Of a stretch of 64,000 bases of DNA, positions 1 through 18,841 are shown piece by piece. The position numbers were made by a program, and so were the translations under genes. The DNA comes from Candidatus Poribacteria bacterium (GTDB lineage Bacteria > Poribacteria > WGA-4E > PCPOR2b), in NCBI GenBank assembly GCA_022826645.1, contig JAJDUM010000063.1, positions 11,657-75,656 of the forward strand, read 5' to 3'. The first letter of the stretch is position 1. Every line of letters starts with the position of its first letter. The notes under the pieces are model-generated. The model made no database searches. It saw only the letters and a program-made list of their open reading frames with translations, and was not told where the DNA came from.

Positions 1-1711
1 CAATCCGACTGCCGAGCGTGAGATCAACGGTTTCCAGTTCATTTTCCTGAGTGAGGATATAATCTATCTCCGGTCCCGCCTGAATTTCGCGAATCCCGAA
101 TTTGCGCGGTCGGGGTGTGTACTCCATCTGACTATGGAATCGACGGCTTCCCTGGTGTCGAACGTATCCAACTTTTGGGTCGAAGTTATCACCGATATCA
201 GTGTATCCAGCTGACAGATCAAAGAAATCTGCTTGCCAATTTGAACCAACATACCACGCGTCCCCGTTTCCGACATCCTCCGCTGAGTCCCATGTCCGTG
301 CCCAAAATCCACGGAGTTCGAGTCTGTCGGTTGGACGATACGAAAGGTCAAGCCCACCAGCGCGATTGTAGTTTTCGGAATCCTGCTTATTGACGGTGAT
401 TAATCCAACGCGAGAGCCAGTGAAAAGGTCGCGTGTCATCCTTAGCACAGAGTAGTTAGTGCGTGGCACATCAACAATTTCGTCGGGATCAGTAACCGAT
501 TCATCTGTGTGAAAATCGTTGGTGAACACATTGAGTAGTCCCACTCCGTAGGGTCCCATCTTGCCCGTGATCTTGCCACCCCCGAGAATTGGAATGGGAT
601 GTCCTTCTTCAATGCCGATACGACGGCTGTAGAAAAGGAGTAGTGGCGGTGGACGACGCCAACTGGGGCGCGGCACACCAAAATCGAAAAGGCCTGCTCC
701 TTCTAAAAAGAAAGGACGCTTCTCAGGGAAGAACAGACTAAAACGGGTGAGGTTGACCTGTTCCTCGTCCGCTTCGACCTGTGCGAAATCTGTGTTATAT
801 GTTAAATCTGCGATGAGGTTCGTAGTCAGGCCGTACTTGAGGTCTAATCCAACCTCGAACTCTCCATCGGTCTTATCGTCATCTTCGATTCGACTCACAC
901 CGGGTAAAACGTAAGGAAGAAACTCGATCTGTCTTTTCGGCTTGATCCCCTCTATGCCCACCAAACTGCCCATGTAGGCGGTGCGGTATTTTGCGCGACC
1001 ACCATACGATGAGGGAACCGGTGCCCAGGTGCCTTCCTCATTGGTTCGCCGGATGCCACGCGACAGGTTCAACCCCCACGTCATTTGTTCGCTCTCCTTG
1101 AAACGGAGTTGACCGAAGGGGATAGAAATTTCTGATGTCCAGCGGTCGGAATGGATGCGGCTTTGACAATCCACCACCGCATCCCAGTCCCGGTTGAAAC
1201 TATCGCCGCTGTTGGTTACGGCAGTATCCTGCACCGCCCCCAACGCATTAACACGGAACGCAACGCCGCTCCGTTTATCATTATAGGTATCGAGGATGAG
1301 AAAAACGTAGTCGTTTTCATGTAATTCACGGGCATCGCGTCGCATGTCGTTGGCGACTAACTTGGAAATATCTGAATCAAAACAGGTAAAGCCGAAGTAG
1401 ATATTCTCTTCATCATAGAGAATACGCACTTTGGTCGGTAGGGTCATTGGTTCTCCCGCATCCGGCTCGACCTGACTAAATCGTCCGACAGGTTTGGCTT
1501 CTTGCCAATCGGGCTCATTGAAATCGCCGTCAATCTCGATGCTGCCAAAGGTCCGATACGCCACTATTTGATAGTCACTGGCGTTTGTTGAGACTGCGTT
1601 GCCAGCGGAGGGAATTAAAATGACCAAATATACAAACAAACAGAGGAACAGGTAGATTTTGTAAGATTCTTCCTCCTGAGAAGAAGAATATCTCTGTGAT
1701 TGACAACCCAT
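1..1711 (-). CDS. DUF5916 / CBM9-like domain protein (partial; 3' end lies beyond window start)
   Basis: Manual translation of minus strand from ATG at 1711 gives a continuous ORF to position 1 (not in ORF track because no stop in window). N-terminal hydrophobic segment, then IEIDGDFNEPDW...KVRILYDEENIYFGF motif typical of CBM9-like/DOMON-like N-domain of DUF5916 proteins. Confidence 0.55.
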   Translation of the reverse strand, partial: MGCQSQRYSSSQEEESYKIYLFLCLFVYLVILIPSAGNAVSTNASDYQIVAYRTFGSIEIDGDFNEPDWQEAKPVGRFSQVEPDAGEPMTLPTKVRILYDEENIYFGFTCFDSDISKLVANDMRRDARELHENDYVFLILDTYNDKRSGVAFRVNALGAVQDTAVTNSGDSFNRDWDAVVDCQSRIHSDRWTSEISIPFGQLRFKESEQMTWGLNLSRGIRRTNEEGTWAPVPSSYGGRAKYRTAYMGSLVGIEGIKPKRQIEFLPYVLPGVSRIEDDDKTDGEFEVGLDLKYGLTTNLIADLTYNTDFAQVEADEEQVNLTRFSLFFPEKRPFFLEGAGLFDFGVPRPSWRRPPPLLLFYSRRIGIEEGHPIPILGGGKITGKMGPYGVGLLNVFTNDFHTDESVTDPDEIVDVPRTNYSVLRMTRDLFTGSRVGLITVNKQDSENYNRAGGLDLSYRPTDRLELRGFWARTWDSAEDVGNGDAWYVGSNWQADFFDLSAGYTDIGDNFDPKVGYVRHQGSRRFHSQMEYTPRPRKFGIREIQAGPEIDYILTQENELETVDLTLGSRI

Positions 1712-1886
1712 AGACATCTTTCCTTTCGTTTTCGGACACCTCGGATACACTGTCAGATAAGGTGTATAAGTTATTCACCGTGGGCAAGGTTATCACTGTT
1801 TTACTTAGAGTGGAGCACTTGGACTCTGTGGGCACTCTTGAGTGTCGAGAAACTGGGAAACAGGAATGGTAATTCTGACTGAGAGG

Positions 1887-3227
1887 TTATTCTCCTTGCA
1901 GGCGTTGGACTAACATCTCCCGCGTCACCGGTTGATCAAGAGACATCAGGTAAATTTGGAGATTACCGCTTCGGTCAGAGACAAAGGCAAGTTTCCTTCC
2001 ATCTGGTGAGAAGGTTGGCTGTACCGAGACACCGATGTCGCTGGTAATGCGTCGCTCATTCGTTCCATCTATATCCATCAGATAGATCTCGATGTCATCC
2101 ATCCGCCCAGAGACGAAGGCGATAGTTTCCCCGTCCGGGGCGATCACCGGGCTGTAACAGTCATAGGGGTTGGGATTCAAATGTTTTTCGTCGCTGCCGT
2201 CAAGATTGATAGTATAGATCTGATGCAGCGGTTTATTGCGACCGGGCGCTACACGGCGAGGCCCTGTGCCTTCTGGACCTGCCGACACAAAAGCCATTCG
2301 TTTTCCATCTGGAAAAAAAGTTGGACTACCTTCATCTGCCTCGCTGTCAGTGATGCGTATGGGCACAACTACTCTTTCTTTCAAGTTTTCCAGATCGATT
2401 TCGTTTAGATCCAGGGTGTATAAGTCTAAATTTCTGTCCCTGCTCGCCTCATAAACCACGCGCTTCGAATCTGGCGATAAACACGGCACACGGACCCCCA
2501 ATCCAAGTGGCAAAAGTTCCTGTGTTACCTTGCTATCGAGGTGAGTCAGATAAATACCGGTATAGACAGGTGTTGTTCCATCGCTTTGGAGAACGATCTG
2601 GACTTCGCTGGCACTTTTAGGTTCACGGCTATGTACTAAGTAAGGCGAGTCGTCCAGAAATCTCGGCGTATCTTCATTGAAATCCGGTGTGAACGTTATC
2701 TGTCGGAGGTTGCTTCCATCCACATCCATCAGATAAATTTCACTATTCTGTAGCCGGGACGATGCGAAGGCTATCTGTGTGCTATCAGGAGAGAAGTTTG
2801 GGGAGTAATTTTCTGGGTTCCCTTCCGTAATCTGAACCACCTGGTAGGCATCGCTGACAAGTCCTGCAACCTGTTGTATCACCGCGTTATCCGATGTGGA
2901 GTGAACAATCGCCCGTAGTTGATTGACCCCTTCCTTGCGAACCCCTAATCTTAGATAAATCTTTGCTAATTGGAGGCGTACCATCGCCCGCTCTTCGGGC
3001 TGGGCAACGTACAGTCGGATCGCAGCCTTGAATTGGGGTATCGCGCGATCGTAGTTTTCCAGCGCTTCATGTGCTTGCGCCATCAGGAGCCGCGCTTTGG
3101 GATTCCGTTCCTCCGCCGTGATGACCTGCGCTAATAGAGCAATCGCTTCATCATACCGGTTTGAGCTGATAAGCTCCTCACTCTGTCGCAGTGATTCGTC
3201 TGTCCCATCGCAACCGATGATCAACAA
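1887..3227 (-). CDS. TPR repeat + TolB-like (PD40/WD40-like) beta-propeller protein
   Basis: 446-aa ORF; N-terminal TPR-like helices; repeated SPxFSPDGxxIAFxS PD40 motifs (4+ copies). First canonical start is TTG at 3227; start uncertain (see finding). Confidence 0.75.
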   Translation of the reverse strand: MLIIGCDGTDESLRQSEELISSNRYDEAIALLAQVITAEERNPKARLLMAQAHEALENYDRAIPQFKAAIRLYVAQPEERAMVRLQLAKIYLRLGVRKEGVNQLRAIVHSTSDNAVIQQVAGLVSDAYQVVQITEGNPENYSPNFSPDSTQIAFASSRLQNSEIYLMDVDGSNLRQITFTPDFNEDTPRFLDDSPYLVHSREPKSASEVQIVLQSDGTTPVYTGIYLTHLDSKVTQELLPLGLGVRVPCLSPDSKRVVYEASRDRNLDLYTLDLNEIDLENLKERVVVPIRITDSEADEGSPTFFPDGKRMAFVSAGPEGTGPRRVAPGRNKPLHQIYTINLDGSDEKHLNPNPYDCYSPVIAPDGETIAFVSGRMDDIEIYLMDIDGTNERRITSDIGVSVQPTFSPDGRKLAFVSDRSGNLQIYLMSLDQPVTREMLVQRLQGE

Positions 3228-3422
3228 GAGTGGTAGAAAAGCGCAACATAGCGTGTGAAATGTGGGGCGTGATGCGTAGTGTGTAAAACGAGAGATCGTC
3301 TGCTTTGCCTCCTTCCTCCGACTTGTGGAAGGATTCCTAAAGAATATATAACCAGTTGAGGTAGGATGGGTTTAACCCAAATACCCAGAGATGCTTTTTT
3401 GACGCATCTGTGCTAAATTTGT

Positions 3423-4637
3423 TTACTCGTGTCTTAGCGCTTCAATCGGGGATAACTTCGCTGCCTTCCATGCAGGATATGCACCGAAGAAGATACCGAC
3501 CCACGCTGCAACGAAAAATGCTACTGCCGTATATATCGGTGAAATAACCGTCCGCCACCCCCAGAGCGAGGGCACCATTTTCGATCCGAAGATTCCAACG
3601 CCAATCCCAATCAAGCCACCGAGGATCGACAGCGTCATCGATTCGATCAGGAACTGAATCAGGATGTCATGACGTTTGGCGCCGACCGCTTTCCGTAAAC
3701 CTATCTCCCTCGTGCGCTCTGTCACCGACACCAACATGATATTCATTATCCCAATTCCGCCGACGATCAGCGATACCACTGCAATGCCCATAATCATGTA
3801 GGTGAATGTTTGTCCCGATTCTTCAAGCGTCTCAAGAAACTCTGTTTGATTCCGCACGTTAAAATCGAGTTCCTTGTTAGCAGGAAGTTTGTGTTGTTTG
3901 CGCAAGAGATTCTCGATTTCCGCTTCGGCTGGTTCCATCGCCTCGCTATTGACCGCCTGCGCACTGATACTTGATAGATAATCTCTGCCAAAAACCCGTT
4001 TCATCGCCGTTGATACCGGAATAAAGATTTGGTCATCCGGATTCCGCCAGCCGCTCGCCCCCTTCTCCTTCATCACACCCAGCACCCGGAAGTTGAGTCC
4101 CCGGATCTTGACTGTCTCGCCAATCGGATTTTTTTCGTTGCCAAACAATTCATCGACGACTGTTTTTCCCAACGTGCACACCCGGCGCCGAGTACGCACG
4201 TCGTTCTCAGTAAAAAATGCACCTTTCTCAACTGGAAAATTCGCTGTAATCTGGTACTCGGGTGTCGTACCGATAACCGTCGTATTGTGGTTTTTATTCC
4301 CGTGCTTGACCTGAGCGCGCGAAGATACTTCCGGTGTAACTAACAGAATATTTTCTGCGCGCTCCCTCAATACCATCGCATCTTCATACTTCAGACTCTG
4401 ACGATCCTGCCCTGAACTCCTTCCGCGCAAACGGCTCTGACCCGGACGGACTGCCAGGATGTTCGCCCCGAGCGTCTGGATGCGCTCCGTGATGTCAGCT
4501 TTCGCTCCCTCGCCGATGGAGGTTGTGGTCATAATCGCTCCCACACCGATAATCACACCAAGCATCGTCAGCGCCGATCGAAGTTTGTTTGCTAATAAAC
4601 CACGTAACGCGTTTGCTAAACTTTCGAGCATTCCCAT
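3423..4637 (-). CDS. MacB-like ABC transporter permease (FtsX family, periplasmic MacB domain; no fused ATPase)
   Basis: 404 aa; N-terminal TM helix, ~200-aa periplasmic domain, C-terminal FtsX-type 3-TM bundle (GIAVVSLIVGGIGIMNIMLVSVTERTREIGLRKAVGA). 24 bp downstream of MFP gene, so likely co-transcribed. Confidence 0.85.
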   Translation of the reverse strand: MGMLESLANALRGLLANKLRSALTMLGVIIGVGAIMTTTSIGEGAKADITERIQTLGANILAVRPGQSRLRGRSSGQDRQSLKYEDAMVLRERAENILLVTPEVSSRAQVKHGNKNHNTTVIGTTPEYQITANFPVEKGAFFTENDVRTRRRVCTLGKTVVDELFGNEKNPIGETVKIRGLNFRVLGVMKEKGASGWRNPDDQIFIPVSTAMKRVFGRDYLSSISAQAVNSEAMEPAEAEIENLLRKQHKLPANKELDFNVRNQTEFLETLEESGQTFTYMIMGIAVVSLIVGGIGIMNIMLVSVTERTREIGLRKAVGAKRHDILIQFLIESMTLSILGGLIGIGVGIFGSKMVPSLWGWRTVISPIYTAVAFFVAAWVGIFFGAYPAWKAAKLSPIEALRHE

Positions 4638-4661
4638 CTAAATAGGTTCCCCCCTCGTTTA

Positions 4662-6722
4662 TCAGCGACCGCCCCCTCTGCCACCGCCGGCGTTTCGCTG
4701 CATCCGTCTCATTGTAGAAGCTGGATTGCCCATCATACGTCGGAATCGTTCCATATCCCCGCCGCCTCTGCGCTCGAAACCGCCCACGGCGACGGCCTGC
4801 CCTTCATTTAGGCCTGAGATGATTTCTGTTCTGTCGAAACTACTCGCACCGGTCTCAACAGGTTGTGGACGCCCCGGCTGACCATCTTCGCCGATGACAC
4901 GAACCATTTTTCGGTTTCCAAAAGACAGAATCGCTTCATTCGGAAGGACTAATATATTTCGCTTACTCGTGGCAGCAATCTCAACAGTTGCATTCATCCC
5001 CGGCTTCAAGAACGGCGTATCTGTATCTTCCGATGGGGTTTCTTCAGGAGTTGGATCCACCGTCCCTGTGTCACCGAAAAAACTGTCCGCCATTGCCATC
5101 CACGGATCCGCCGCCTCCGCTGGTTCAGCAGCTGTTGAATCCTCGCTGGGAGTTTGGGCGTTCTCTGATGTCCCCTCTTCTTCTTGCCGCTGCCGACGCA
5201 TCTGTCGAAAGCGTTCCCGCTGTTCTGGTGTAAACTCACCTCCGCCCTCGCCTCGGCTGAAACCGCTGCCTTCACCGCGCCCTGCAAATCCACCGCCTCT
5301 CCCCCAACGTCCGCGTCCCCTTGGACGTGTATTCGTGATTTCAGTGATGACCTTGAATGTTGTTACATTTTGAACCACCTGCCCTTGCGGTGCGATGCGA
5401 AGCACCTCCCCTTGCAGCGGTTGGTCAGGATAGGCTTCGACGGTGATGGTCACCTGTTGACCGACCTTCACCTTGCCGATATCAGTTTCATCTACCTCTG
5501 TTGCGACAAATACCTTTTCGAGATCCGCCATCGTTACCAGCACCTGACCTTCGGACGAAACAGAGCCGCTCCTGCCGCCCCCACCAAAGCTGGAGACGAT
5601 TACCTGTCCTTCCTCCGCCTTCTTTTCGAGAATCGTTCCGGAAATGGGGGCACGGATAACCGTATCGTCATAGCTCTCTTTTGCAAGTTGCAGGGCGCTT
5701 GCACTGCGCATGAGTTGTGCGTTGGAACTTTCAAGATCCTTTTCCTTCAGATCGATCTGTTTTTTATTGGCAAGTGCCAACTCCAAAGCGTCCTTGGATT
5801 GTGTAACACGATGTTCCTGAATCTTTATCTCCAAGTCACGATACTTCTCTTTCTCGATCTGCTCATTCGCCGCATCAATGGCGTACTGTGCTCTCTGAAT
5901 CTCAGCCTCCGAGAGTTTTAACTCCGCTTCGCTTGCCGGTTGTTTAACTAACTCCAACTGCTGTTTAGCCGAGTCGTACTGTGCCTGTGCTGATTGAAGC
6001 TGCGTCCCAGCGGAGTCAAGATCCGATTTTGAGATGAACTGTTTATCGAAAAGTTGCTGTTTTCGGTCATACTCTTTTTTGGCAAGGTCGTGATTGGCTT
6101 TCGCTTGGTTCACGCTTGCTTCTGCACGTTTCTTATCTTCTTCCCGTACCGTCTCAGATGTCAGGAGTTTATATCGTAATCGCGCCATCTCGTGGCTATT
6201 GCTTGCATCGTTTAATTGGCGTTGGTTGGTTATTTTTTCTATCCGTATCTGTTCTGTGAGCTGCTCTAACTGTTTTTCTGCTTCAGCCAACTTTTCTTTC
6301 GCCTGTTGAATCTGAATCGCGGTCTGCTCTTTTTGCAATTCGATACTAATCTTCGATTGATCAAGGCGTGCCTGGGACGCGCTAAAGTCTGCTTGTGCCT
6401 GCTCCAGATCTGCTGCAACGTAGGTAGTTTCAATACGTGCAATAACAGCGTCCTGTTCGACGTAATCGCCTTCTTCTACGGTGATCTCTAAAATTTTACC
6501 GCTCGCTTTGGAACTTACCTCAACGATATTAAGCGGCTCAATGGTCCCGGTAGCATCAATTGTGACTTCAATATTGCCCCGCTCAACTGTGGCGGTCTTG
6601 ATTTCAGGGGTATTGTTAGCGTCCTCTTTGGTTGCTTTGGCGCGTTGTCCCCACAGCAGCAAACCGCCGGATACGAGGACCACGACAGCAATCACTATGA
6701 TAATGATCCATTTCTTCCCCAT
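4662..6722 (-). CDS. HlyD-family membrane fusion protein (efflux periplasmic adaptor) with long coiled-coil and RG-rich/acidic insertion
   Basis: 686 aa; N-terminal TM anchor, ~250-aa coiled-coil hairpin, beta-barrel/MP domains (VIRAPISGTI, VLVLPNEAI); ~107-aa low-complexity insert (aa ~466-572) and RGG C-terminal tail. Confidence 0.8.
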   Translation of the reverse strand: MGKKWIIIIVIAVVVLVSGGLLLWGQRAKATKEDANNTPEIKTATVERGNIEVTIDATGTIEPLNIVEVSSKASGKILEITVEEGDYVEQDAVIARIETTYVAADLEQAQADFSASQARLDQSKISIELQKEQTAIQIQQAKEKLAEAEKQLEQLTEQIRIEKITNQRQLNDASNSHEMARLRYKLLTSETVREEDKKRAEASVNQAKANHDLAKKEYDRKQQLFDKQFISKSDLDSAGTQLQSAQAQYDSAKQQLELVKQPASEAELKLSEAEIQRAQYAIDAANEQIEKEKYRDLEIKIQEHRVTQSKDALELALANKKQIDLKEKDLESSNAQLMRSASALQLAKESYDDTVIRAPISGTILEKKAEEGQVIVSSFGGGGRSGSVSSEGQVLVTMADLEKVFVATEVDETDIGKVKVGQQVTITVEAYPDQPLQGEVLRIAPQGQVVQNVTTFKVITEITNTRPRGRGRWGRGGGFAGRGEGSGFSRGEGGGEFTPEQRERFRQMRRQRQEEEGTSENAQTPSEDSTAAEPAEAADPWMAMADSFFGDTGTVDPTPEETPSEDTDTPFLKPGMNATVEIAATSKRNILVLPNEAILSFGNRKMVRVIGEDGQPGRPQPVETGASSFDRTEIISGLNEGQAVAVGGFERRGGGDMERFRRMMGNPASTMRRMQRNAGGGRGGGR

Positions 6723-6805
6723 CGGTTATCCTCCTTCGTTGGCGAAACAAAAAAAACTGGGGAGAATGGACGAATCCATATCTCCCCTTGTCTATATGTC
6801 GTGAT

Positions 6806-7291
6806 TTAGCGGCCTCTGTTGCCACCACCGCCTCTTCTACCACCACCTCGATTCATCATCTGCTGCATCCGCTTCTGTTGGTGTGTCTCGAGTTGGGCTA
6901 CCTGCTCTTCGGTCAAGACCGATTTCAAATCTTCCTTGAACTCACTGCCAATCTTCCCGAAGACTTCGCGCATTCCGCCTCGATCTCCGGATTCACGGGC
7001 TTCTTTGAGGATTTTCTGAAGACTCTCACGATGTTTCTGGTAAACTGGACGGGCTTTGATGAGTGTCTCATCATCGACCTTGAGAGAAAATGTAAGGTCT
7101 GTCCATGAGTTGTCAATGATTGAGGTGGGATTGAACCCACGCATTCCGCCACCACCACGTCTTTCGCCTCCGGCTCTCTCGCGCATTCCGTCGCGGTCTG
7201 GGCGCTGGGCTTGGGTAACTTGATTTGTGAGAAAAACGGTAACTGCTGCCATTGCGAGAATGGCGGTGAGTACGAACCATCTGCGTTTCAT
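6806..7291 (-). CDS. LTXXQ-motif (Spy/CpxP/ZraP-like) periplasmic protein with RGG-rich segments
   Basis: 161 aa; signal peptide MKRRWFVLTAILAMAAVTVFLTNQVTQA; LTEEQVAQLETHQQKRMQQMM motif characteristic of the CpxP/Spy LTXXQ family; Gly/Arg-rich low complexity. Confidence 0.55.
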   Translation of the reverse strand: MKRRWFVLTAILAMAAVTVFLTNQVTQAQRPDRDGMRERAGGERRGGGGMRGFNPTSIIDNSWTDLTFSLKVDDETLIKARPVYQKHRESLQKILKEARESGDRGGMREVFGKIGSEFKEDLKSVLTEEQVAQLETHQQKRMQQMMNRGGGRRGGGGNRGR

Positions 7292-7431
7292 GGTAAAGTC
7301 TCCTTCTTTCTTGTCGAATGAATGTTAGAATAGTGCCGAACCACGGATTTATAATCAATAATATGTAGGTTTCGGCTATAATTTTGTGTCTCTGCATCTT
7401 TGGGCAGATGAGTTTGAATTAAGTTCGCCTT

Positions 7432-7462
7432 TTTTTAAAGAAAAATGAAGGAACGTCCCTTC
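7432..7462 (-). terminator. candidate intrinsic terminator downstream of BNR-repeat gene
   Basis: Minus-strand GAAGG-GACGTT-CCTTC hairpin followed by AUUUUUCUUU; a CUGC-CGAA-GCAG tetraloop hairpin lies 15 nt upstream (7477-7488). Confidence 0.4.
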
Positions 7463-7569
7463 GGCTCGGTCTGGTACTGCTTCGGCAGCCGTCAGATTGG
7501 CATTGCAAAGGTTCGAGTTCCTACATATTTGTCGCCTCATTGGAGCTTTCTGTTAGTTCGTTAGTTTGT

Positions 7570-9633
7570 TCATTCTACAGGGCGCCAGCGAATTGCTTGG
7601 ACGCGTGGCATATACTTAAAACCGTCCGGTGTTGCAGGTCCTTCACTGCCCCAGTTTCTTTCCGATCGCTCGCCGACCAGCGTGAGAATCATCCCCGGCT
7701 TGCCATCGGCTAAGTGCGAGGGCAGTACGCAGCTGCCGGAATAGCCCGGGTACGAGGGCGTTGCGGTCATGAAATATAACTCATCGCACCAAGTTTTGCC
7801 TTCATCGTAGCTTACTTTTGCCCGCTCGCCGCCGCGATACGTCGGTCCACGGTGTGTATAAAGGAAGACGACTCGTCCGTCCGGTAACTGGATACCACCG
7901 CCGTGCATCTCTTCCAGCAGAAACGTTGCGGGACGCTGGCTATGCCACGTCTCTCCACCGTCATCTGATTCTGCCAGAGTGACCCGTTTCGTGTAGGAAG
8001 AAAGACTCCGCGCGCCTTGAAAACGCTGCCACAACCGCCACGGTTCTTCATTGCGGAATGGGCGTTGTAGGTCGCTGGACGGAACCCGTGGATTGTTGCG
8101 GCAGAAGGCGAGTAGCCGCCCCGATTGTAATTCGAGGAGTTGTGGCTCACCCCCCGGGCAGATTGGTGATCCCGCTGACCATGTTTTGCCTCCGTCGGTT
8201 GAGCGAAATGAGTGTACGGTCAGGGGACCTGCGGCTGTTTGCGAGCTGATAATGCCGACCGGTATAATCAGTGACCCATCGCGCAGCTGTTCAATCCCCC
8301 CGACCTGCGGGTGTTCGGATGACTCGATTTCTCCGAGCGGCTGCCATGTTCTTCCCTGATCGCTTGACCGTGAGACATGCAACAACCTGCCCTTCGGCTC
8401 TACAGCCAAAAACGTCCCATCGTATAACACAGTGTTAATCGACTTGGTTACCTGTAGATTGTCCCAAGTTTGTCCACCGTCACGGGTACACATCACCGTA
8501 TGTCCATCGCTCATCTGTGCGTGAATCTTATCGTCATCGGTAACGATTAGCGTCGCTTGTGTATCGGCATACCAGTTACGGTCATTGGTCCACGGCAGCA
8601 CACTCCGTTCAGCAGGTATTTCATGCACGGCACTGTGCCTTGTGTACATCACACCCTGATATGTTTCCTCGAAGACTGGATAGTTGACGAAGATATAATC
8701 TTCGGGACTAATCTGTTCACCGGCTGCTGCGAGAACCCGAGCGCGGAACTCACCGATGAACGGAAAGTCCAGCGAGAGGCTGCGTTCATTTCGACCAGGA
8801 CCGATAGGATCCACGAGCGTATAGCTGAAAATTACACGTCCTCCAACAAGCTCCCGGACTTCCATCGTAATTGGTTCATTGACCGTTTTATCCGTCTGAT
8901 TGTATGTTGTCAGAGAGAGCTTGAGAGGTCCATCGTTAAGGTGGATCAGAGAGCTGTCCCGTCGCCCCTGATTAGGACGAGAGTCAGGACTGCCCACAAC
9001 TGCTGCTTCAACACTCCGGCGTGGTTGGAACTCCGTTGCTTGAGGTGCTTGCTCCAACTGTGCTGCGTCGAACCAAACGACTGCTCCCGCTTTATCTGCC
9101 GTAACCTTGAGGTCAACGACAGCGCGTTCCTCCAGTTCGTCCGTGCAGCAGGTAAACGTAAAACGCTGCCATTCCGTCGAAAGCGGCATCTCATAACTGA
9201 GCGAATCTGCGTCCTCTGTGAAGTCTACCGCCCTCGTCCACAACCCGATCTCCAGTTTTGCCGACGGTTCATCGCTCCGCGCATAGACCGAAATCGTATA
9301 CGGTGTGCAAGGAACAACATTCACCAGAGGTGAGAGCAGGTGTCCGACAGCAGTACCGCTGCGTTCGCCCACCTCATCGGAATTCAAGGCAGTCTCTGTC
9401 TCAACCCGCGCTACACGCTCGCCATCAACAGCCTCACCGATGACTTCACTGCACGGCGGCACCTGCGGCACTTGAGTCGTCCCTGCTTCATCGGGGTTCA
9501 AATCGAGATGCAACCGTAACGTCAACTCGTTCTGCGTGTCGCCCCAGTTCGTCGGGACGGTATCACCGAAGTCGAGTTCAAAACTGGCGTTGGGTAGCAG
9601 ATTTTTTGAGAACATATTTGGACCGACCCCCAC
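7570..9633 (-). CDS. BNR/Asp-box repeat (sialidase-like) protein with N-terminal carbohydrate-binding-like domain
   Basis: 687 aa; multiple S-x-D-x-G-x-T-W Asp-box motifs (STDGGKTWS, SDDGGETWH, SDQGRTWQ, DGGQTWD); N-terminal NLLPNASFE...WG beta-sandwich-like region. Confidence 0.65.
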   Translation of the reverse strand: MGVGPNMFSKNLLPNASFELDFGDTVPTNWGDTQNELTLRLHLDLNPDEAGTTQVPQVPPCSEVIGEAVDGERVARVETETALNSDEVGERSGTAVGHLLSPLVNVVPCTPYTISVYARSDEPSAKLEIGLWTRAVDFTEDADSLSYEMPLSTEWQRFTFTCCTDELEERAVVDLKVTADKAGAVVWFDAAQLEQAPQATEFQPRRSVEAAVVGSPDSRPNQGRRDSSLIHLNDGPLKLSLTTYNQTDKTVNEPITMEVRELVGGRVIFSYTLVDPIGPGRNERSLSLDFPFIGEFRARVLAAAGEQISPEDYIFVNYPVFEETYQGVMYTRHSAVHEIPAERSVLPWTNDRNWYADTQATLIVTDDDKIHAQMSDGHTVMCTRDGGQTWDNLQVTKSINTVLYDGTFLAVEPKGRLLHVSRSSDQGRTWQPLGEIESSEHPQVGGIEQLRDGSLIIPVGIISSQTAAGPLTVHSFRSTDGGKTWSAGSPICPGGEPQLLELQSGRLLAFCRNNPRVPSSDLQRPFRNEEPWRLWQRFQGARSLSSYTKRVTLAESDDGGETWHSQRPATFLLEEMHGGGIQLPDGRVVFLYTHRGPTYRGGERAKVSYDEGKTWCDELYFMTATPSYPGYSGSCVLPSHLADGKPGMILTLVGERSERNWGSEGPATPDGFKYMPRVQAIRWRPVE

Positions 9634-9685: not shown

Positions 9686-12298
9686 TTAATCGGCAGCCAT
9701 CTTATCTTCTGCAGCCGGTTCGGTCACAGTGAATGTCAGCGCATCACTGTTTGCATCAATCAGCAGATGATCCCCGTCACGCACCTCGTTCTGAATTACC
9801 TGCATTGCCAGCGGATCAATGATCTGCTGCTGAATGACCCGTTTAAGAGGGCGCGCACCGTAGGCAGAATCATACCCTTCCTGAATGAGGAGATCCGTCG
9901 CTCCATCGGTCATATCAATCGAGATGTCTCGTTTGGCGAGCAACTGACGGACGTTGCCGAGTTGAATTTTAGCAATTTGACGAATATGTTCGCTTTCCAG
10001 ACGATGGAAAAATACCACTTCGTCAACTCGGTTCAGAAACTCTGGACGGAAATGCTCGCGAAGCGCGACCTTCACTTGCTCACGCATTGCTTGGTCGTTT
10101 GTGATGTTCAGAATCGAGTCGCTGCCAATGTTGCTGGTCATGATGATGACCGTATTTCGGAAGTCAATAGTTCGCCCTTGACCGTCGGTAAGGCGACCAT
10201 CATCGAGTACCTGTAGGAAGACGTTGAACACTTCCGGATGCGCCTTTTCGATTTCGTCGAACAGCACGACGCTATACGGACGACGTCGGATGGCTTCGGT
10301 TAGCTGACCGCCCTCGTCATATCCCACATATCCCGGCGGTGCACCGATTAAGCGGGCTACAGTGTGTTGTTCCTGATACTCGCTCATATCAATCCGCACC
10401 ATGTTCTGTTCATCATCGAACAGGAATTCCGCCAATGCACGGGCAAGTTCGGTTTTTCCCACACCCGTCGGTCCCAAGAAGATAAACGAACCGATCGGAC
10501 GATTCGGATCTTGCAAACCTGAACGACTGCGCCTGACCGCTCGCGCCACCGCTTCGACGGGACCGTCCTGTCCAACGATTCGATTGTGCAGCCGTTTTTC
10601 CATCTGAACCAGCTTTTCAATCTCACCTTCCAACAGTTTGCTCGCTGGAATCCCAGTCCACTTACTGATAATGGCAGCGATATCTTCGGAGTCCACCTCT
10701 TCCTTTAACAATGCACCGTCACCCTGAAGTTGAGCAAGTGCCGCTTCAGCATCAGTAAGCTCGTTCTCCAATTGACGGAGATGGCCGTAGCGGAGTTCGG
10801 CAGCTCGCTGTAAATCGGTCTGACGTTCCGCTTCCTCAATTTGCTGGTTAACTTGGTCAATCTGCTCACGGATACCGCGTACCTTCTCAATGGCAGTGGT
10901 CTCTGCTTGCCACCGCACAGACAGTTGTGTGCTTTTCTCTTCGAGGTTGGCGAGCTGTTCTTCAATCTTTGCCAACCGCTCTTTGCTCCCCGCGTCCTTT
11001 TCTTTTCTCAAGGCCTCCCGCTCGATCTGTAACTGCATAACCTCTCGATCGACCGTATCCAATTCCGCTGGCTTACTGTCAATTTCGGTGCGGAGTCGAC
11101 TCGCAGCCTCATCTACAAGGTCGATTGCCTTATCCGGTAGAAAACGATCACTGATATAGCGATGGCTCAGCGTTGCAGCAGAGATCGCTGCGCTATCGGT
11201 GATGCGGACACCGTGATGCACTTCATACCGCTCTTTGAGACCACGTAGGATGCTGATAGTATCCTCAACGGAAGGTTCATCGACGTAGACCGGCTGAAAG
11301 CGGCGTTCGAGTGCTGCATCTTTTTCGATATGCTTCCGGTATTCGTCGAGCGTTGTTGCACCGATGGCGTGGAGTTCGCCGCGCGCCAGCATCGGCTTGA
11401 GCATGTTGGACGCATCCATCGCGCCTTCGGCTGCCCCGGCACCAACGAGGGTGTGCATCTCATCGATGAAGAGAAGGATCTGTCCTTCGGCACTCTGAAT
11501 CTCTTGCAACACTGCCTTGAGTCGTTCCTCAAACTCACCTCGATATTTTGCGCCGGCGACTAACGCGCCAAGGTCAAGTGCGACGAGTCTTTTCTCCTTC
11601 AAACCGAGCGGCACATCGCCCCGCACAATTCGCTGCGCGAGCCCTTCAACTACAGCGGTTTTGCCCACTCCCGGTTCACCGATAAGTACCGGATTGTTTT
11701 TTGTGCGCCGATTCAGAATCTGAATTGTACGCCGAATCTCTTCGTCCCGACCAATTACCGGATCAAGCTTCCCCTTACGGGCTTCCTGCGTCAAGTCACG
11801 TCCATACTTAATTAACGCTTCATACTGGTCTTCGGGGGTTGGGCTGCTAACCCGCTGGGAGCCGCGAATGCCCATCAAGGCGTCCATGATACTCTTTTCG
11901 TCTACCCCGAAGGCCGCCAGCAACTCGTTGACCGTGGCTACTTTCGCCTGCACCATCGCCAACAGAATATGCTCGGTGGAGGTGTAGTCATCCTTCATCT
12001 TATCGACGATTGTCTCTGCACCGTCGAGAACACTAACGAGATCTTGGTCCATTCCAACTTGGACCGATGCACCTGTAGCGCGTGGCATACGATCCAAAGT
12101 CTCATCAATCCGTTGTCCCAACAGATCGGTATCCACACCAATCCGTTTGAGAACCGATGGCACGACCCCGCCTTCTTGCTCAACCAGTGCTTTGAGCAGA
12201 TGCTCCGTTTTGACTGCCGGATGGTTGTAGTTTTGTGCTAAATTCTGCGCTTCTATAAGCGCCTCTTGGCCCTTTTGTGTAAATTTGTCAATGCGCAT
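9686..12298 (-). CDS. clpB: ATP-dependent chaperone ClpB
   Basis: Two AAA+ modules with Walker A GEPGVGKT and GPTGVGKT, middle coiled-coil domain, Clp N-domain; start chosen at [10 protein letters not shown] (ATG 12298) with AGGAGG SD 7 nt upstream. Confidence 0.95.
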
Positions 12299-12475
12299 AA
12301 CTGTTCCTCCTGATGTGTATTGCATGAAATATCAATCGGAATTGAATCAGCAAATGACATGCCAAGATAATTCTTTTTGTCTCTATTTGGCTGCAATGCG
12401 CGCCATGCGTAGTTAATCAGGTTTTCGACAGGTATTAGAGCATACTCGCTGCAGAGCTTTAGCGCATCTGCACTA

Positions 12476-12488
12476 TGTCAAATTGACA
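12476..12488. promoter_or_regulatory. 13-bp palindrome TGTCAAATTGACA upstream of clpB (candidate operator)
   Basis: ~180 bp upstream of clpB start codon on the transcribed side; contains TTGACA on both strands. Confidence 0.3.
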
Positions 12489-12555
12489 CATTAATCGTTT
12501 CTCTTATGTCAAGACAACACGCTTTGACTCTGGGATTTTACCAAAGATTTCCGCA

Positions 12556-13851
<1,296 letters not shown>

Positions 13852-14230: not shown

Positions 14231-15148
14231 TCATGAGGCCATCGAGCGTTTTTCAAGCTGCCAATTCAGAACCTCAAACAGCGTTGCAGATAGGATTATG
14301 TGATAGAGTACCATCCACATCCAGACAGGTGTAATGCTGAGACCGACGTAGGCATCAGATTTTACAATAGCAATCAGCGCACACAAGGGACTCAACACTC
14401 GCAGCAATTCTATCAAGATCTTTGGAAAAGTTATCATCGGTGTCAATGCAGGAATGATAAGTGGAGTGAAAGTCAGCAATAGCACCACGGCGTAACTGCG
14501 TCCTCGTGCGTGATCCGGGCATCCTAACAGAGCAAAACATGCCCCAATTAAGAAAAAGGCAATAAATCCGATAATGGATACCAGTCCGCACAAAAACAAC
14601 TGACGCATCTCCAATCCGCCTGTGTAAACCGAAATTCCAAAGAGTGGAATCGTCAACCCGATACACCACAGTAGTGCCAAAACCGCTCCTATCAGTTTAC
14701 CAAGCAGGAACTTTCGATGCCCGATAGGTGTGAGATTAAGTATATCCCAGTTGGATCCGCGTCTCTCAATCTGAAACGATTCAACAGCTTGCAGCGGGAT
14801 AAACAAGCCGAGTAATAGACAAAAAAACAGTGATATTAGGACGACGTAAATGCTTTCGCCGACAAGAATTTGTGGTCGTCCACGGCTTAACGCAAATCCC
14901 TCAAATGCTGTGACAAACAGGGCGAAAGCGAGAGTACATAGAATGATAAATTGTGTGCGGCGATACTTTGGTTGGTACGCGTAAAAACGCGACTCTTTAA
15001 GGATTAGGGCAATCATGACTTCATCGCAGATTTCATGGAACCTCGAAGGTGTAGTATCCTTGTCGCAATTCAGATGGAGATAATTATAACCGATTCGCAT
15101 CCCGTGGGCAAGACTAAGCTGTTGGGTCTTCCAAAAATGCTTGAACAT
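14231..15148 (-). CDS. polytopic membrane protein, ABC-2-type permease-like
   Basis: 305 aa with ~60-aa cytoplasmic N-terminus followed by 6-7 hydrophobic helices; resembles ABC-2/NosY-like permeases; no ATPase nearby. Confidence 0.45.
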   Translation of the reverse strand: MFKHFWKTQQLSLAHGMRIGYNYLHLNCDKDTTPSRFHEICDEVMIALILKESRFYAYQPKYRRTQFIILCTLAFALFVTAFEGFALSRGRPQILVGESIYVVLISLFFCLLLGLFIPLQAVESFQIERRGSNWDILNLTPIGHRKFLLGKLIGAVLALLWCIGLTIPLFGISVYTGGLEMRQLFLCGLVSIIGFIAFFLIGACFALLGCPDHARGRSYAVVLLLTFTPLIIPALTPMITFPKILIELLRVLSPLCALIAIVKSDAYVGLSITPVWMWMVLYHIILSATLFEVLNWQLEKRSMAS

Positions 15149-15245
15149 TACAAGTAGATGTGTTAATCTATTGATATCTTGTTGCCTTGGTGCGACTTGT
15201 CCTCACAACGGTTCTGCCCAAACATATATTAGGAGATTAAGTCAG

Positions 15246-16220
15246 ATGAAAAAGCGTGTTTTTTGTGCATTGAAGATTCTATCAGCGATACTTGCTCTCA
15301 TTGCAATTTCACTCAACCCACTTCATGCGAATTACAACGGGGAATGCTGGGTCGTCAGTGGTGGCGATACGGTCTATAAACTTAATGCAGATGGCCTGGC
15401 AGATCCAACGATCATACCCGGTCTCACGCAGGCACAAGCTGCCGTGGTTGATCCGAAGAGCGGTATTGTTTGGATCGCTGTTTCTGCTGCAAATGCGGTC
15501 TATAGATTTAACCCTGCAGAGCAAGATCCAAACTTACAATTCATCACACTTCCGCCGATTGAGCGGCCCCATGCTGTTTCAGTCAATCCAACGGATGGGA
15601 CTGTTTGGGTTGGTGGAATTAATTCGGTACAAAAGTTCTCAGCCGACGGCAAGCAGGTACTTGCGACGGTTACTGGCGTGCACGAACCAACAGTTGCGGT
15701 CAATAGCACTGACGGTAGCTGCTGGGTCACAGATTCCCGCGGAACGATTGCTCGGTATAGTGCAGCCGGCGCAGCCGCTGCGACCTCTCCGGTAAAACTG
15801 AAAGAACCCAAATATGTCAGTGTCAATTCCACATCTGGCAATGCGTGGGTGACAGATCCACATGGCAATGTCATCGTCAAATTGAGTCCAGGCGGCCAAG
15901 AATTGCTCAGAGTTACCGAACTCAAACTACCCAGCTCGCCGAGTGTCAACCAGCGGGATGGCAATCTGTGGGTTGTTGCCGACGGTAATACCCTTGTTAA
16001 ATTGTCTGCAGCTGGTCAGAAATTGCTGGAAGTACCTGCCGGGATGGCGGTTCTTTCTATCTGTGCCAGTTCCCAAGATGGCGGAGTATGGGTCGCTGAT
16101 CAGTTTGGATCGACATTTCAGGGCGGCGTCAGTAAGTTCTCTGCGGATGGACAGCAGTTGTTTGAAAACCCGATACCGCAGCCCTCTTTCGTCTCTGTTG
16201 GAAACTGGGCGGGGCAATAA
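15246..16220 (+). CDS. secreted 7-bladed beta-propeller repeat protein (Vgb-lyase/NHL-like repeats)
   Basis: Start at MKKRVFCALKILSAILALIAISLNPLHA signal peptide (AGGAG SD upstream); seven ~40-aa repeats with xDGxxWVxDxxGxxxxKxSxxG pattern. Confidence 0.6.
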   Translation: MKKRVFCALKILSAILALIAISLNPLHANYNGECWVVSGGDTVYKLNADGLADPTIIPGLTQAQAAVVDPKSGIVWIAVSAANAVYRFNPAEQDPNLQFITLPPIERPHAVSVNPTDGTVWVGGINSVQKFSADGKQVLATVTGVHEPTVAVNSTDGSCWVTDSRGTIARYSAAGAAAATSPVKLKEPKYVSVNSTSGNAWVTDPHGNVIVKLSPGGQELLRVTELKLPSSPSVNQRDGNLWVVADGNTLVKLSAAGQKLLEVPAGMAVLSICASSQDGGVWVADQFGSTFQGGVSKFSADGQQLFENPIPQPSFVSVGNWAGQ

Positions 16221-16328
16221 TACGCACATAACCGTAGAGATAAATGGGTATACCGAATACCTGTCCATTTGCTGGCTGGCCATCTTTAATTCGCTATTAC
16301 TGATTTTCTCAACCTTTCTTCCCAACCC

Positions 16329-16344
16329 GTCCCGATCCATCGGG
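16329..16344. repeat. small palindromic repeat GTCCCGATCCATCGGG (second copy)
   Basis: 20 bp upstream of start of CARDB gene at 16364. Confidence 0.7.
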
Positions 16345-16363
16345 ATAAAAAAGGGGTATTCGT

Positions 16364-18841
16364 ATGTGCAGGTTTCGCATGCTTTTCGTTCTGATACTGC
16401 TCCTCGCTGTATCTCACGTGCAAGCTCAACAGCCACTGTTGCCGGACTTTGAGGTGGACAGCACCAGTTTTGTGTTTTCCAACCCCTCTCCGCTTGAGGG
16501 AGAGGAGATCACGGTTTACGTCACTGTCAATAATGTGGGACAGGCTGCGCCGACGATGAATGAAGATCTGATTGTCAATCTTTACGAAGGCGATCCGGGG
16601 ACAACCCCGCTGCAGATTATGTGCAGAGACGTGATTTTGGGGCTGGGGGTTGGCGAATCAAAAAGGGTCAAAACGCAATGGCGACCACCGCCCGGAACAA
16701 CGGAAGTGTATGCCGTTGCCAATCCGGCTGGAGACGATAAGGAGATTCAAGAAGCCAATCGCAGCAACAACATCGCGCACACCTCTTTTACTGCAACCCG
16801 GCGTGCGTTTCCCAAGGCAACCCCTGACCAGATCCAAAACGCAATTCAAAGAGGGGTGGAATGGGTGAGAGCGCAACAGGGTCGGCATAATCGCACCTGC
16901 TTACAATGTGGTTCCGAAAATCAGCTTATCTCGATCTGCGTCATCTGTGGTGCCACCCTTAAAGGGCTGCCCGAAGATCTGTTGCCCGGTCCAGCATGGG
17001 ATCTGGGGGAAGATAGTAAGCAAGAAACTGCGCTCGCACTGCTTGCTCTCCTGTCGGCGGGGGTGCCTGCGTCAGATCCTGCTGTGCAGCGAGGGCTGAA
17101 TTTTCTCATGCAGCAGGATTGGAACTCCTTCGATGTCTACGTTCATTCTATTGTTTTGCCAGCACTCGTTACTGCCAACCTGCCGGAATACCGCAAACGC
17201 GCCCAATTTTCAGTGAATCAACTTGTTAAAAGTCAGTTGCCATTTGGTGGGGAGGAATTCTCAGATCCAAGAGATTTTGGCGGCTGGGGCTACGGTGCGA
17301 CAGCCGATGGAGCGCACTTTAACTGGGTTATCTATGCCCTATACGCTGCAAAACAGTGGGGGCTTGATGTCCCGTCGGAGACTTGGCAGCGGGCAGAGGA
17401 GTGGATTCGCAGCAATCAGACAGATACCGGTGGATGGCTCTATAATCGAGTCGAACACGGTTCGCCTTGGGCGGAAGGTGTCTACGGCAGCATGACGGCG
17501 ACGGGACTGTGGACGCTCCGTGCATTTGGCGTTCCTGTTCAAGATCCGCAGGTGCAAAAGGGGTTGGAATGGATCAAAAAGCACTGGTCGCTCACCCGCA
17601 ATCCCGGAGCAAACTCTTGGCATCACTACTACTTTGTGACATTACAGCGTTTCTGTGACATCCCGCCGAAACAGGATACACTCGTCGGACATGATTGGTA
17701 TCAGGATATCGCCAGTATGTTCGTTGCAGAGCAGCAACCTGATGGACGTTGGATCGATCACGAGGACTATTTCCCCACAACCTGTTTCGCGCTGATGTTT
17801 CTGACCCGTTCCTTGCCGAAACCGATGCAGCCAGACCTTGGTGCGATAAACCGCAGTCTTCGTTACTCTCCACCATCACCGCGGGTTGGTGACCCTGTAC
17901 GAATCAGTGTCACACTGGCAAATACCGGTGCACCGATTGAATCTACCGTTGCAGTAGATTTTTACGACGGAAATCCAGCACAAGGTGGGAAAAAGATCGA
18001 TTCTCAAGAGGTGCTCTTTAACACAAACCTCGACGAAACGACCACCGGGGTTAATTGGACCCCAAGTGAGGAGGGCGATTATACGCTCTATGTTGTTGTT
18101 GATCCAAACGCGGCGATTGAGGATCTGGATCGCAGTAACAATACCACATCGCAGCAATTGACTATCCGCCCAGAGTCTGCCGCTGCAATTTCCCCAGATT
18201 CTGCTATCCAAAAAATCGGCGACGGTGTACTTCAAATTGGAACGGTCACTGTCGATGTTAACAACCATGAAGTCATAATGAACGGTGAGATTAATGTTAT
18301 CAGTCAGGAAACCATCTTGGAATTTTTTGCGGTCGGCAAGCTGGGAAAAACACATGAAAGCCTCATTATGCTTGATGCGGAACCGATGCACATCCAACTT
18401 GCGCTGCTTCGCCTGAACCTAAATCCGGGCATGAACCTTACTGTGGAAGGTGACCCCCATCTACCCAGAGGCGATCCAGTCGAGTTGTGGGTAGAATGGA
18501 AACGTGGGGAGCAGGTCGTTCGACATCGTGCCGAAGAGATGGTCTGGAATACGATGACTAAGCAGCCAATGCAGCAAACCCATTGGGTGTTCACCGGCGC
18601 GCGGGTTATACGTAATCAATTCACCGCACAACTGTTCCACAATATTATTGCTGTCTACCGCGATCCAGATTCTATCTTCAACCATCCGCTGCCCGGCGGC
18701 ACAGATGATCGAACCTACCGCGTTAATACAGATGTTGTTCCCGCCAAAGCAACGCCGGTAAGAATTATTGCCCGACAAATACAGACTGATGCACAGGGTA
18801 ATCGTCGCAACGAACCCACCAATCAGCAGATGGGCGGATAG
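16364..18841 (+). CDS. secreted multidomain protein: CARDB domains + prenyltransferase/squalene-oxidase-like alpha/alpha-toroid repeats + Cys4 zinc ribbon
   Basis: 825 aa; signal peptide MCRFRMLFVLILLLAVSHVQA; CARDB-like EITVYVTVNNVGQAAP and VRISVTLANTGAP; QQDWNSFD/GGWGYG/DTGGWLY prenyltransferase-like repeats; CLQCGSENQLISICVICG. Confidence 0.6.
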   Translation: MCRFRMLFVLILLLAVSHVQAQQPLLPDFEVDSTSFVFSNPSPLEGEEITVYVTVNNVGQAAPTMNEDLIVNLYEGDPGTTPLQIMCRDVILGLGVGESKRVKTQWRPPPGTTEVYAVANPAGDDKEIQEANRSNNIAHTSFTATRRAFPKATPDQIQNAIQRGVEWVRAQQGRHNRTCLQCGSENQLISICVICGATLKGLPEDLLPGPAWDLGEDSKQETALALLALLSAGVPASDPAVQRGLNFLMQQDWNSFDVYVHSIVLPALVTANLPEYRKRAQFSVNQLVKSQLPFGGEEFSDPRDFGGWGYGATADGAHFNWVIYALYAAKQWGLDVPSETWQRAEEWIRSNQTDTGGWLYNRVEHGSPWAEGVYGSMTATGLWTLRAFGVPVQDPQVQKGLEWIKKHWSLTRNPGANSWHHYYFVTLQRFCDIPPKQDTLVGHDWYQDIASMFVAEQQPDGRWIDHEDYFPTTCFALMFLTRSLPKPMQPDLGAINRSLRYSPPSPRVGDPVRISVTLANTGAPIESTVAVDFYDGNPAQGGKKIDSQEVLFNTNLDETTTGVNWTPSEEGDYTLYVVVDPNAAIEDLDRSNNTTSQQLTIRPESAAAISPDSAIQKIGDGVLQIGTVTVDVNNHEVIMNGEINVISQETILEFFAVGKLGKTHESLIMLDAEPMHIQLALLRLNLNPGMNLTVEGDPHLPRGDPVELWVEWKRGEQVVRHRAEEMVWNTMTKQPMQQTHWVFTGARVIRNQFTAQLFHNIIAVYRDPDSIFNHPLPGGTDDRTYRVNTDVVPAKATPVRIIARQIQTDAQGNRRNEPTNQQMGG

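Follow-up and report, generated by a model that had tools for sequence, protein, structure and literature searches.

MacAB-type pumps are usually pictured as three-component machines with fully folded adaptors, and the accessory partners of tripartite pumps have become a current topic with YbjP, a small outer-membrane lipoprotein that binds TolC (PMC13082787, PMC13095208). Here we examine a 64-kb stretch of DNA (the window) from a sponge-symbiont Candidatus Poribacteria, in which a three-gene module on the minus strand encodes, in order of transcription, a small accessory protein (161 aa, positions 6806-7291), a predicted MacA-type periplasmic adaptor or membrane-fusion protein (686 aa, 4662-6722), and a MacB-type (type VII ATP-binding cassette, ABC) permease without a fused ATPase (404 aa, 3423-4637). 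All features given below with window coordinates lie on this strand. The first two genes are separated by 83 bp and the last two by 24 bp, and the open reading frames (ORFs), coordinates, and peptide strings cited in a preliminary description of this DNA were all found in the window. The trio is kept in 22/22 related loci, which come from species-level genomes that are all Candidatus Poribacteria and in many cases consist of a complete chromosome of 5-7 Mb. The locus departs twice from the usual picture: the whole phylum keeps a dedicated fourth pump gene, encoding a small helical periplasmic protein, and one lineage has fixed a conserved, disordered, arginine-exclusive adaptor loop at a site that bears low-complexity inserts elsewhere. 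On balance we lean toward reading the module as a MacAB–TolC-like exporter whose ATPase and duct would be encoded elsewhere, whose adaptor would carry an outward-facing polyampholyte collar formed by the insert and the C-terminal tail, and on which the small protein would dock as a pump-dedicated partner.

The closest described system is MacAB–TolC of E. coli (PDB 5NIK, 9QGY). Both systems have a four-domain adaptor with an RLS motif, a permease with MacB_PCD and FtsX domains, and, in the operons of relatives of the window locus, an ATPase and an outer-membrane efflux protein (OEP). In contrast to the E. coli system, the ATPase is a separate polypeptide in these relatives and is not adjacent in the lineage of the window, the adaptor carries a 105-aa disordered insert in its β-barrel and a tail rich in Arg, Met, and Gly, and a gene for a small periplasmic protein stands first in the operon.

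Profile hidden Markov models (HMMs) matched the adaptor to RND_mfp, HlyD_D23, and HlyD_3, with a TIGR01730 (RND_mfp) score of 148 bits against a cut-off of 94.9. The AlphaFold 2 (AF2) model, built from a 74-sequence alignment (mean predicted local distance difference test score, pLDDT, 75), comprises a transmembrane helix (residues 5-26), a lipoyl domain, a long α-hairpin, a β-barrel, and a membrane-proximal domain. Because the single transmembrane helix is N-terminal, the protein is expected to be periplasmic apart from this anchor. The best Foldseek matches were to MacA in MacAB–TolC (9qgy_G, 8e-25; 5nik_D, 8e-22). The modeled hairpin helices (residues 100-187, 194-226, 232-260, and 265-352) form arms of ~120 residues, presumably longer than those of MacA. 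At the hairpin tip lies R220-KQQ-L224-FDKQFI-S231, which follows the R-x3-L-x6-S pattern of the RLS motif; among the 74 orthologues, R220 and L224 are invariant and S231 is nearly so. The RLS motif is described as the element by which adaptors dock onto TolC-type ducts (PMC3391258; Fig. 35 of PMC8277102). The model and the motif point to a MacA-type periplasmic adaptor with putative TolC-type docking. An adaptor identical to that of the window can be found in assemblies of NCBI, ENA, and Logan. Separately, residues 380-390 (5553-5585) form a Gly/Ser-rich loop, FGGGGRSGSVSSEG, upstream of the β-barrel strands; it is predicted to be disordered (pLDDT ~36) and is conserved among orthologues.

The MacB-type assignment of the permease in the preliminary description was borne out by matches to PF12704 (MacB_PCD, 9.7e-51) and PF02687 (FtsX, 5.3e-22), and the protein aligns to the permease half of E. 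coli MacB only (NF007826 residues 255-648; E 6e-84). Permease identity is 91-99% across the loci of close species, where adaptor identity is 78-97%, and falls to 77-83% in L019, L020, and L023, which diverge most. No ORF with both a Walker A motif and LSGGQ was present in the 64-kb window, tblastn with the MacB-type ATPase and OEP of Poribacteria gave no match there, and no ABC ATPase was found within ±10 kb in the 22 related loci. Elsewhere, the order of genes is more complete. Adaptor orthologues of Poribacteria that lack the insert are 572-586 aa long and ~50% identical to the window protein. The order is small protein (137 aa)–adaptor–ATPase (224 aa)–permease (404 aa)–OEP in L027 and small protein–OEP–adaptor–ATPase–permease in L031 and L032; L025 has small protein–adaptor–permease and, further on, OEP. 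We also assembled a metagenome set of 80 loci with related adaptors, 51 of which hold both adaptor and permease and 55 of which include DNA upstream of the adaptor. In 49/51 of the former, an ATPase gene sits between adaptor and permease.

A cytoplasmic segment of the window permease, TERTREIGLRKAVGAKR (residues 306-322, 3672-3722), was compared with the L027 permease: the two proteins are 57% identical overall, and this segment (MLVSVTERTREIGLRKAVGAKR) shows two conservative substitutions in 17 residues. From what is understood of MacB and LolC, we take it to be the helix that couples to the ATPase. Since the insert-less orthologues and 49/51 metagenome loci keep the ATPase, and the coupling segment is intact, the missing ATPase and OEP are best read as a lineage-specific fragmentation of the operon, not as the mark of an ATPase-less machine. 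The intact segment, together with the RLS motif, therefore leads us to expect that the pump uses an ATPase and a duct encoded elsewhere. The preliminary description had called the cluster one lacking an ATPase; this is accurate for the window, where none is fused or adjacent, and does not extend to the system as a whole, given the ATPase genes in the L027, L031, and L032 operons. In L016, a Poribacteria genome, a second adaptor (539 aa, without RG motifs) and two more paralogues of the MacB-type permease are encoded near the module (1557-4067, minus strand; 15127-16746, plus strand), and no ABC ATPase lies within 22 kb. Orphan MacB permeases may thus be common in Poribacteria.

The small protein begins with a signal peptide (residues 1-28), whose cleavage site TQA|QRP is invariant as TQA|Q-x-P. 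There follow a disordered Arg/Gly/Met segment, QRPDRDGMRERAGGERRGGGGMRGFNP (residues 29-55, 7127-7207; pLDDT <50, 7 Arg, 0 Lys), a four-helix core (57-69, 74-101, 107-122, and 128-148 in the AF2 model; core pLDDT >90), and a disordered Arg/Gly/Met tail, RMQQMMNRGGGRRGGGGNRGR (residues 141-161, 6809-6871; 6 Arg, 0 Lys). Its gene is the first of the module in every Poribacteria lineage with an intact module, the insert-less lineages included, and the protein of the window matches its L027 homologue at 34% identity (E 3e-22). BLAST found no homologue of it in the 80 metagenome loci of related, non-Poribacteria adaptors. The sequences thus depict a Poribacteria-specific four-helix family that is a constant operon partner of the adaptor, and a literature search found no description of this family or of adaptor inserts such as those considered below. 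YbjP and AcrZ offer a precedent for small, long-overlooked partners of tripartite pumps; unlike YbjP, the partner described here would be a soluble or anchored helical periplasmic protein, is encoded with the adaptor, and is unrelated in sequence.

The preliminary description had placed the small protein in the LTXXQ family and proposed an envelope-stress module in which Spy/CpxP-like chaperone motifs are grafted onto the adaptor of a pump without a dedicated ATPase. Several features speak for such a kinship. The LTEEQ motif (residues 126-130, 6902-6916) belongs to an LTxxQxxxL pattern in which L126, T127, Q130, and L134 do not vary among 20 diverse members of the family, some relatives bear the JGI name "Spy/CpxP family protein refolding chaperone," and the FTPEQ of the adaptor insert resembles LTEEQ. 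Foldseek returned the LTXXQ-type STV as its top match (probability 0.91, E 0.18) and CpxP at E 2.2, with none at E ≤ 0.001; CnrX was likewise among the weak, non-significant fold matches. As in Spy, CpxP, ZraP, and CnrX (PF07813, PF13801), the protein is small, Sec-exported, and all-helical, and one of its helices starts at an invariant LTxxQ. ZraP has a Gly/Met-rich C-terminal tail, which the tail of the small protein recalls.

Membership of the family was not supported. Pfam and NCBIfam scans gave no LTXXQ-family match for the window protein; Pfam LTXXQ (PF07813) returned nothing at E ≤ 10, matched 4/55 relatives (best E 0.02), and gave no match for any of six divergent relatives. Neither Spy nor CpxP came up when PDB sequences were searched with a profile, and a tie to Spy, CpxP, or ZraP at the level of sequence was accordingly rejected. 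The small protein has one canonical LTXXQ where Spy and CpxP have two, its first half offering only a loosely similar V-D-D-E-T-L helix start, and it differs further from these chaperones in its long Arg-only disordered ends and its fixed place in a MacAB-type operon. With the ATPase present in the ancestral operon, the coupling segment kept, and an adaptor tail that is older than the insert and independent of the small protein (see below), we regard the grafted-chaperone model as highly improbable. What survives of the proposal is the conserved three-gene module, the invariant motif, and an insert and tails that are conserved and peculiar to this pair of proteins. LTXXQ-like ORFs do occur elsewhere: 2/55 metagenome loci with upstream DNA have an unrelated one upstream of the adaptor. 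The unrelated MacA-type operons of L046 (1155-1724) and L081 (446-1114) encode, upstream, a protein that has two LTXXQ-like motifs and is either secreted or anchored in the membrane, and the L081 protein weakly matches Pfam LTXXQ (2e-4) and Metal_resist (1e-3). Aligned by hhalign with the LTXXQ-like proteins upstream of two other MacA-type genes, the small protein reached 10-30% probability.

The most distinctive part of the adaptor is an insertion of 105 aa in a loop of the β-barrel (residues 465-569, 5016-5330), which the 572-586 aa orthologues lack. It lies between a strand ending ...VTTFKVITEITN and the sequence PFLKPGMNATV, both of the β-barrel domain. Its existence and RG-rich and acidic character were as first described; its span is corrected from about 5007-5327 (~107 aa). 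The insert runs from an RG-rich part (residues 465-496, 5235-5330; net charge +4, with Trp and Phe) through a basic helix motif, FTPEQRERFRQMRRQRQEE (497-515, 5178-5234; +2), an acidic stretch, and an acidic-aromatic DPW helix motif, DPWMAMADSFFGD (539-551, 5070-5108), to a second acidic stretch, so that a cationic first half is joined to an acidic half (516-569) of net charge −15 in one polyampholyte. Disorder is predicted throughout (pLDDT <50) save for two short helices, at residues 499-515 (TPEQRERFRQMRRQRQE) and, more weakly, at 540-549 (PWMAMADSFF); residues 501-510 are the best block, with a mean pLDDT of ~77.

Adaptors of equal length occur in at least 120 protein clusters at 78-100% identity, drawn from assemblies made independently of one another (NCBI, ENA, Logan, and JGI), complete 5-7 Mb chromosomes among them, and an assembly artefact was rejected on these grounds. 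We scored conservation as the mean fraction of 120 sequences that share the residue of the window protein, in blocks of 20 residues. Across the insert this block identity is 0.58-0.93: the RG part stands at 0.85, the blocks around FTPEQRERFRQMRRQ at 0.73-0.81, the acidic part at 0.58-0.67, and the insert end at 0.93. In orthologues at 63-69% overall identity, F-x-PEQ-x-E-x-FR...MR-x-Q and DPW-x-AM-x-D remain invariant, D539, P540, W541, M544, and D546 do not vary across six divergent orthologues, and all long Poribacteria adaptors keep both the plan of the insert and a common (T/S)PEQRER..MRRQR pattern. Because the clusters number at least 120 and the motifs are invariant in orthologues, the insert is neither an assembly artefact nor drifting junk. 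Two insert-bearing adaptors stand alone, in L029 (8001-10139, 712 aa) and L033 (6001-8112, 703 aa).

An exhaustive HMMER search with residues 340-686 retrieved ~15 closely related clusters at the 50%-identity level and then generic adaptors, mostly as two-piece matches, that is, without the insert. Among 134 representatives with both flanks, the loop measures 0-3 residues in 124 and 11-121 residues in 9, Poribacteria included; these long loops are unrelated low-complexity sequences, several of them Arg/Gly-rich. Homologous adaptors with RG inserts, which the preliminary description had proposed to look for, were found at this same loop among the nine and in two MacA-type adaptors from metagenomes outside Poribacteria, L037 and L038. 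The latter carry a 130-aa RG-rich insert reading "RPRGEGGGFDP...MRR" and including "RPRGEGGGFDPAAMRR". When insert stretches were compared (P0353, "PRGEGGFAPRDRE"; window, "SRGEGGGEFTPEQRERFRQMRR"), a "RGEGGGF-x-P" stretch proved common to Poribacteria, L037, L038, and P0353, in an alignment that is of low complexity and hence weak as a test of homology. Judged from these sequences, the β-barrel loop is a hot spot for low-complexity inserts in several adaptor lineages. The L037 adaptor gene (6001-7722) is followed by ATPase, permease, and OEP genes, and the shorter L038 contig holds the adaptor gene only (6001-7707). A low-complexity extension on a tripartite-pump component has a counterpart in Bucl8, described in section 6.2 of PMC8277102 as a TolC-like outer-membrane factor with a collagen-like region and a low-complexity tail. 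As that section presents it, the Bucl8 extension is extracellular and on the outer-membrane factor; the present one would be periplasmic and within the β-barrel domain of an adaptor.

The adaptor ends in a second conserved disordered segment, the tail GFERRGGGDMERFRRMMGNPASTMRRMQRNAGGGRGGGR (residues 648-686, 4665-4781), with a net charge of +7 and a short predicted helix (657-664). Its block identity is 0.86-0.96 in the same 120 sequences, and MERFRRMM-x-NPASTMRRM within it is invariant among orthologues down to 63% identity. Related tails are also found in the insert-less Poribacteria orthologues, and most related adaptors, from many lineages, have Arg/Met/Phe/Gly/Pro-rich ends (for example, ...QRMQRFTGLPGVKKQ, ...NMMRGMMGGGGGGRR, and ...GGMPPMGGPMMRR). 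Since such ends are widespread in related adaptors, and 53/55 metagenome loci with upstream DNA lack a small gene of this kind, the Arg/Met/Gly tail is native and ancestral to the adaptor clade, and it is apparently undescribed. The view that chaperone motifs were grafted onto the adaptor found no support, given that tails are common where the small partner is absent and that the likeness of the two tails at the DNA level is weak. The DNA alignment scored 24 where shuffles gave 15.4 ± 2.6, and for ERFR the match covered no more than 14 nt. On account of these weak alignments, we rejected a recent duplication or gene conversion that would have linked the two tails to one another or the insert helix to the tail.

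These segments draw their basic residues nearly always from arginine. Counted over the 120 close adaptors, Arg and Lys number 2676 and 6 in the disordered parts and 2743 and 4461 in the folded parts; for the small proteins, the figures are 635 and 0 in the disordered ends and 249 and 384 in the core. These counts come from related sequences and hence are not independent, and the contrast within each protein is nonetheless extreme; divergent long orthologues show the same bias of Arg over Lys. Of the 150 open frames in the window, only those of the small protein and the adaptor contain runs of R/G and R[FM]xxM motifs, and the same restriction, bar one unrelated exception, was seen among 749 ORFs of 23 related loci (~480 kb). 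A genome-wide RGG bias was rejected for the DNA so sampled.

In the arrangement that we favor, the insert would project outward from a hexameric adaptor ring, as six 105-aa loops would not fit the lumen around MacB. Close to the inner membrane, the inserts and C-terminal tails together could then form a multivalent collar of polyampholyte character. The small protein, with tails of the same chemistry, would dock on this collar or on the very site that the adaptor tail occupies, and once docked might hold a substrate that is anionic or amphipathic, or deliver it to the MacB bellows. A bolder version, which we consider unlikely, would have the Arg-only RG/Met segments of both proteins (the insert and tail of the adaptor, and the two ends of its small partner) constitute an undescribed periplasmic docking system. 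There, a condensate-like multivalent polyampholyte collar around the base of the pump would recruit the small protein, as chaperone or cargo, and/or polyanionic ligands, with an ATPase and an exit duct shared in trans with other orphan MacB permeases.

A number of observations weigh against the docking reading. Local alignment of the small-protein tail to the adaptor tail scored 45, where any other ORF of the window reached 28 at most, and 58/1000 shuffles of the adaptor tail attained the same score. As this many shuffles match it, the likeness is mostly compositional, apart from a short "RMQ...GGGR" order. The tails had earlier been called near-identical; they do stand out from the other ORFs, and near-identity was an overstatement. 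A point in favor of docking is that the composition of cognate tail pairs is closer than that of non-cognate pairs across eight lineages (cosine 0.85 vs 0.73, permutation p = 0.0005), in a test that ignores phylogeny and may reflect two lineage groups of differing composition. Pro, for instance, occurs in both tails of L025, L027, L031, and L032 and in neither tail of the lineage of the window. In addition, the partner ATPase and OEP were not located in the window, nor the ATPase in the flanks searched at the 22 loci. The L029 and L033 adaptors have no small protein, permease, ATPase, or OEP gene within 6-8 kb, and because they are solitary the insert evidently needs no adjacent partner gene. 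Finally, both the contact between small protein and adaptor and the outward orientation of the loop in the hexamer are steps that we infer.

The compositional nature of the tail likeness suits a neutral account, by which the insert and tails are tolerated low-complexity expansions with no specific function and resemble each other through shared mutational or compositional drift. The insertion hot spot, with its unrelated low-complexity inserts in other lineages, and the acidic part of the insert, least conserved at 0.58-0.67, fit this account as well. Drift sits poorly with three insert motifs and the MERFRRMM-NPASTMRRM motif of the tail that change little or not at all in orthologues with as little as 63-69% overall identity, with an insert plan retained in all long orthologues, and with an Arg:Lys ratio that is ~450:1 where the proteins are disordered and 0.6:1 where they are folded; such motifs are, moreover, absent from the other sampled proteins of the same genomes. 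We therefore give the neutral account little credence. Were the segments only tolerated expansions, the locus would encode an ordinary MacAB pump with a fragmented operon. If they serve docking or substrate capture instead, disordered short-motif interactions would join the assembly logic of tripartite pumps, and the module would give experimental access to the substrates that MacB-type pumps export in uncultured symbionts.

The shared chemistry of the two tails could also mean that the small protein is cargo, a Sec-exported substrate expelled by the pump, with its Arg/Met tail as the signal and the adaptor tail as a pseudo-substrate. Export of this kind is reported for enterotoxin STII by MacAB and for dispersin by the Aat system. 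The small protein has what a substrate might display: its signal peptide and cleavage site are conserved, its gene comes first in the operon wherever the module is intact, and its divergence outpaces that of the pump parts (in one and the same pair of lineages, the permeases share 57% identity and the small proteins 34%). Against this stand the 80 metagenome loci, where no homologue of the small protein was found and most adaptors end in Arg/Gly/Met-rich sequence, and the likely bulk of a folded four-helix protein of 15 kDa, which seems large for the periplasmic cavity of MacB. Export of the small protein is itself a supposition, drawn from its sequence, and we judge the cargo model quite unlikely, while keeping the pump-dedicated partner as our preferred role for this protein.

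The Met content of the same segments raises a last alternative, a metal relay. In the CusF–CusB system, a metallochaperone passes Cu(I) to a disordered Met-rich adaptor tail, and here too the gene of a small periplasmic protein accompanies that of an adaptor bearing a disordered, Met-containing segment. By analogy, the Met/Gly tails and a ZraP/CnrX/Spy-like small protein could relay Cu(I), Ag(I), or another metal. The MxxM and MxM spacing in the tails and in DPWMAMAD agrees with this, as do the M/G/P-rich ends of many related adaptors and the weak Metal_resist and LTXXQ matches of the protein upstream in the unrelated L081 operon. The comparison with CusF–CusB breaks down in detail: the present proteins have no conserved Met/His/Trp metal site, their Met residues vary, their segments are Arg-rich, and the pump is of the ABC and not the resistance-nodulation-division type. 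Conserved His and Cys are absent from the small protein and the disordered segments of the adaptor, and Met positions change to Phe, Leu, Asp, or Trp in orthologues, both in the insert and, outside the close insert-bearing lineage, in the tail. The fold matches of the small protein are not significant, and because the Arg-only segments are strongly cationic, cation binding is disfavored. No metal export is known for MacB-type pumps. We hold the metal relay to be very improbable indeed.

Two further genes follow the module on the same strand. About 195 bp past the permease gene lies an ORF with TPR and PD40 (TolB-like) domain matches (1887-3227), and after it an ORF with CBM9_1 and DUF5916 matches that runs off the start of the window (1-1720) and is present at full length in L001 (6367-8625). 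The preliminary description had noted both genes; their tie to the module amounts to synteny within one lineage. The TolB-like ORF probably starts upstream of its listed TTG (3227-3300): the in-frame peptide there, ...FHTLCCAFLPLLLIIGC, has the look of a lipobox-bearing lipoprotein signal, no ATG, GTG, or TTG occurs between the upstream stop codon and FHTLCCAFLPLLLIIGC, and the L005 orthologue is 465 aa long with an ATG start. The 752-aa CBM9_1/DUF5916 protein shows alternating β-strand-like patterns and an aromatic C-terminus, ...KMTYWWNP, which would fit an outer-membrane β-barrel; a search for a solved relative of this protein gave none. Its gene follows the pump genes in 18-19/22 loci of the lineage, at the place where other Poribacteria have the OEP gene. 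In L013, a PCPOR2b metagenome-assembled genome, the module is split by a 418-aa ORF between the adaptor and permease genes (12163-13419, minus strand), which, by eye, we take to be a TnpB of the IS200/IS605 type from its CxxC...CxxC near the C-terminus.

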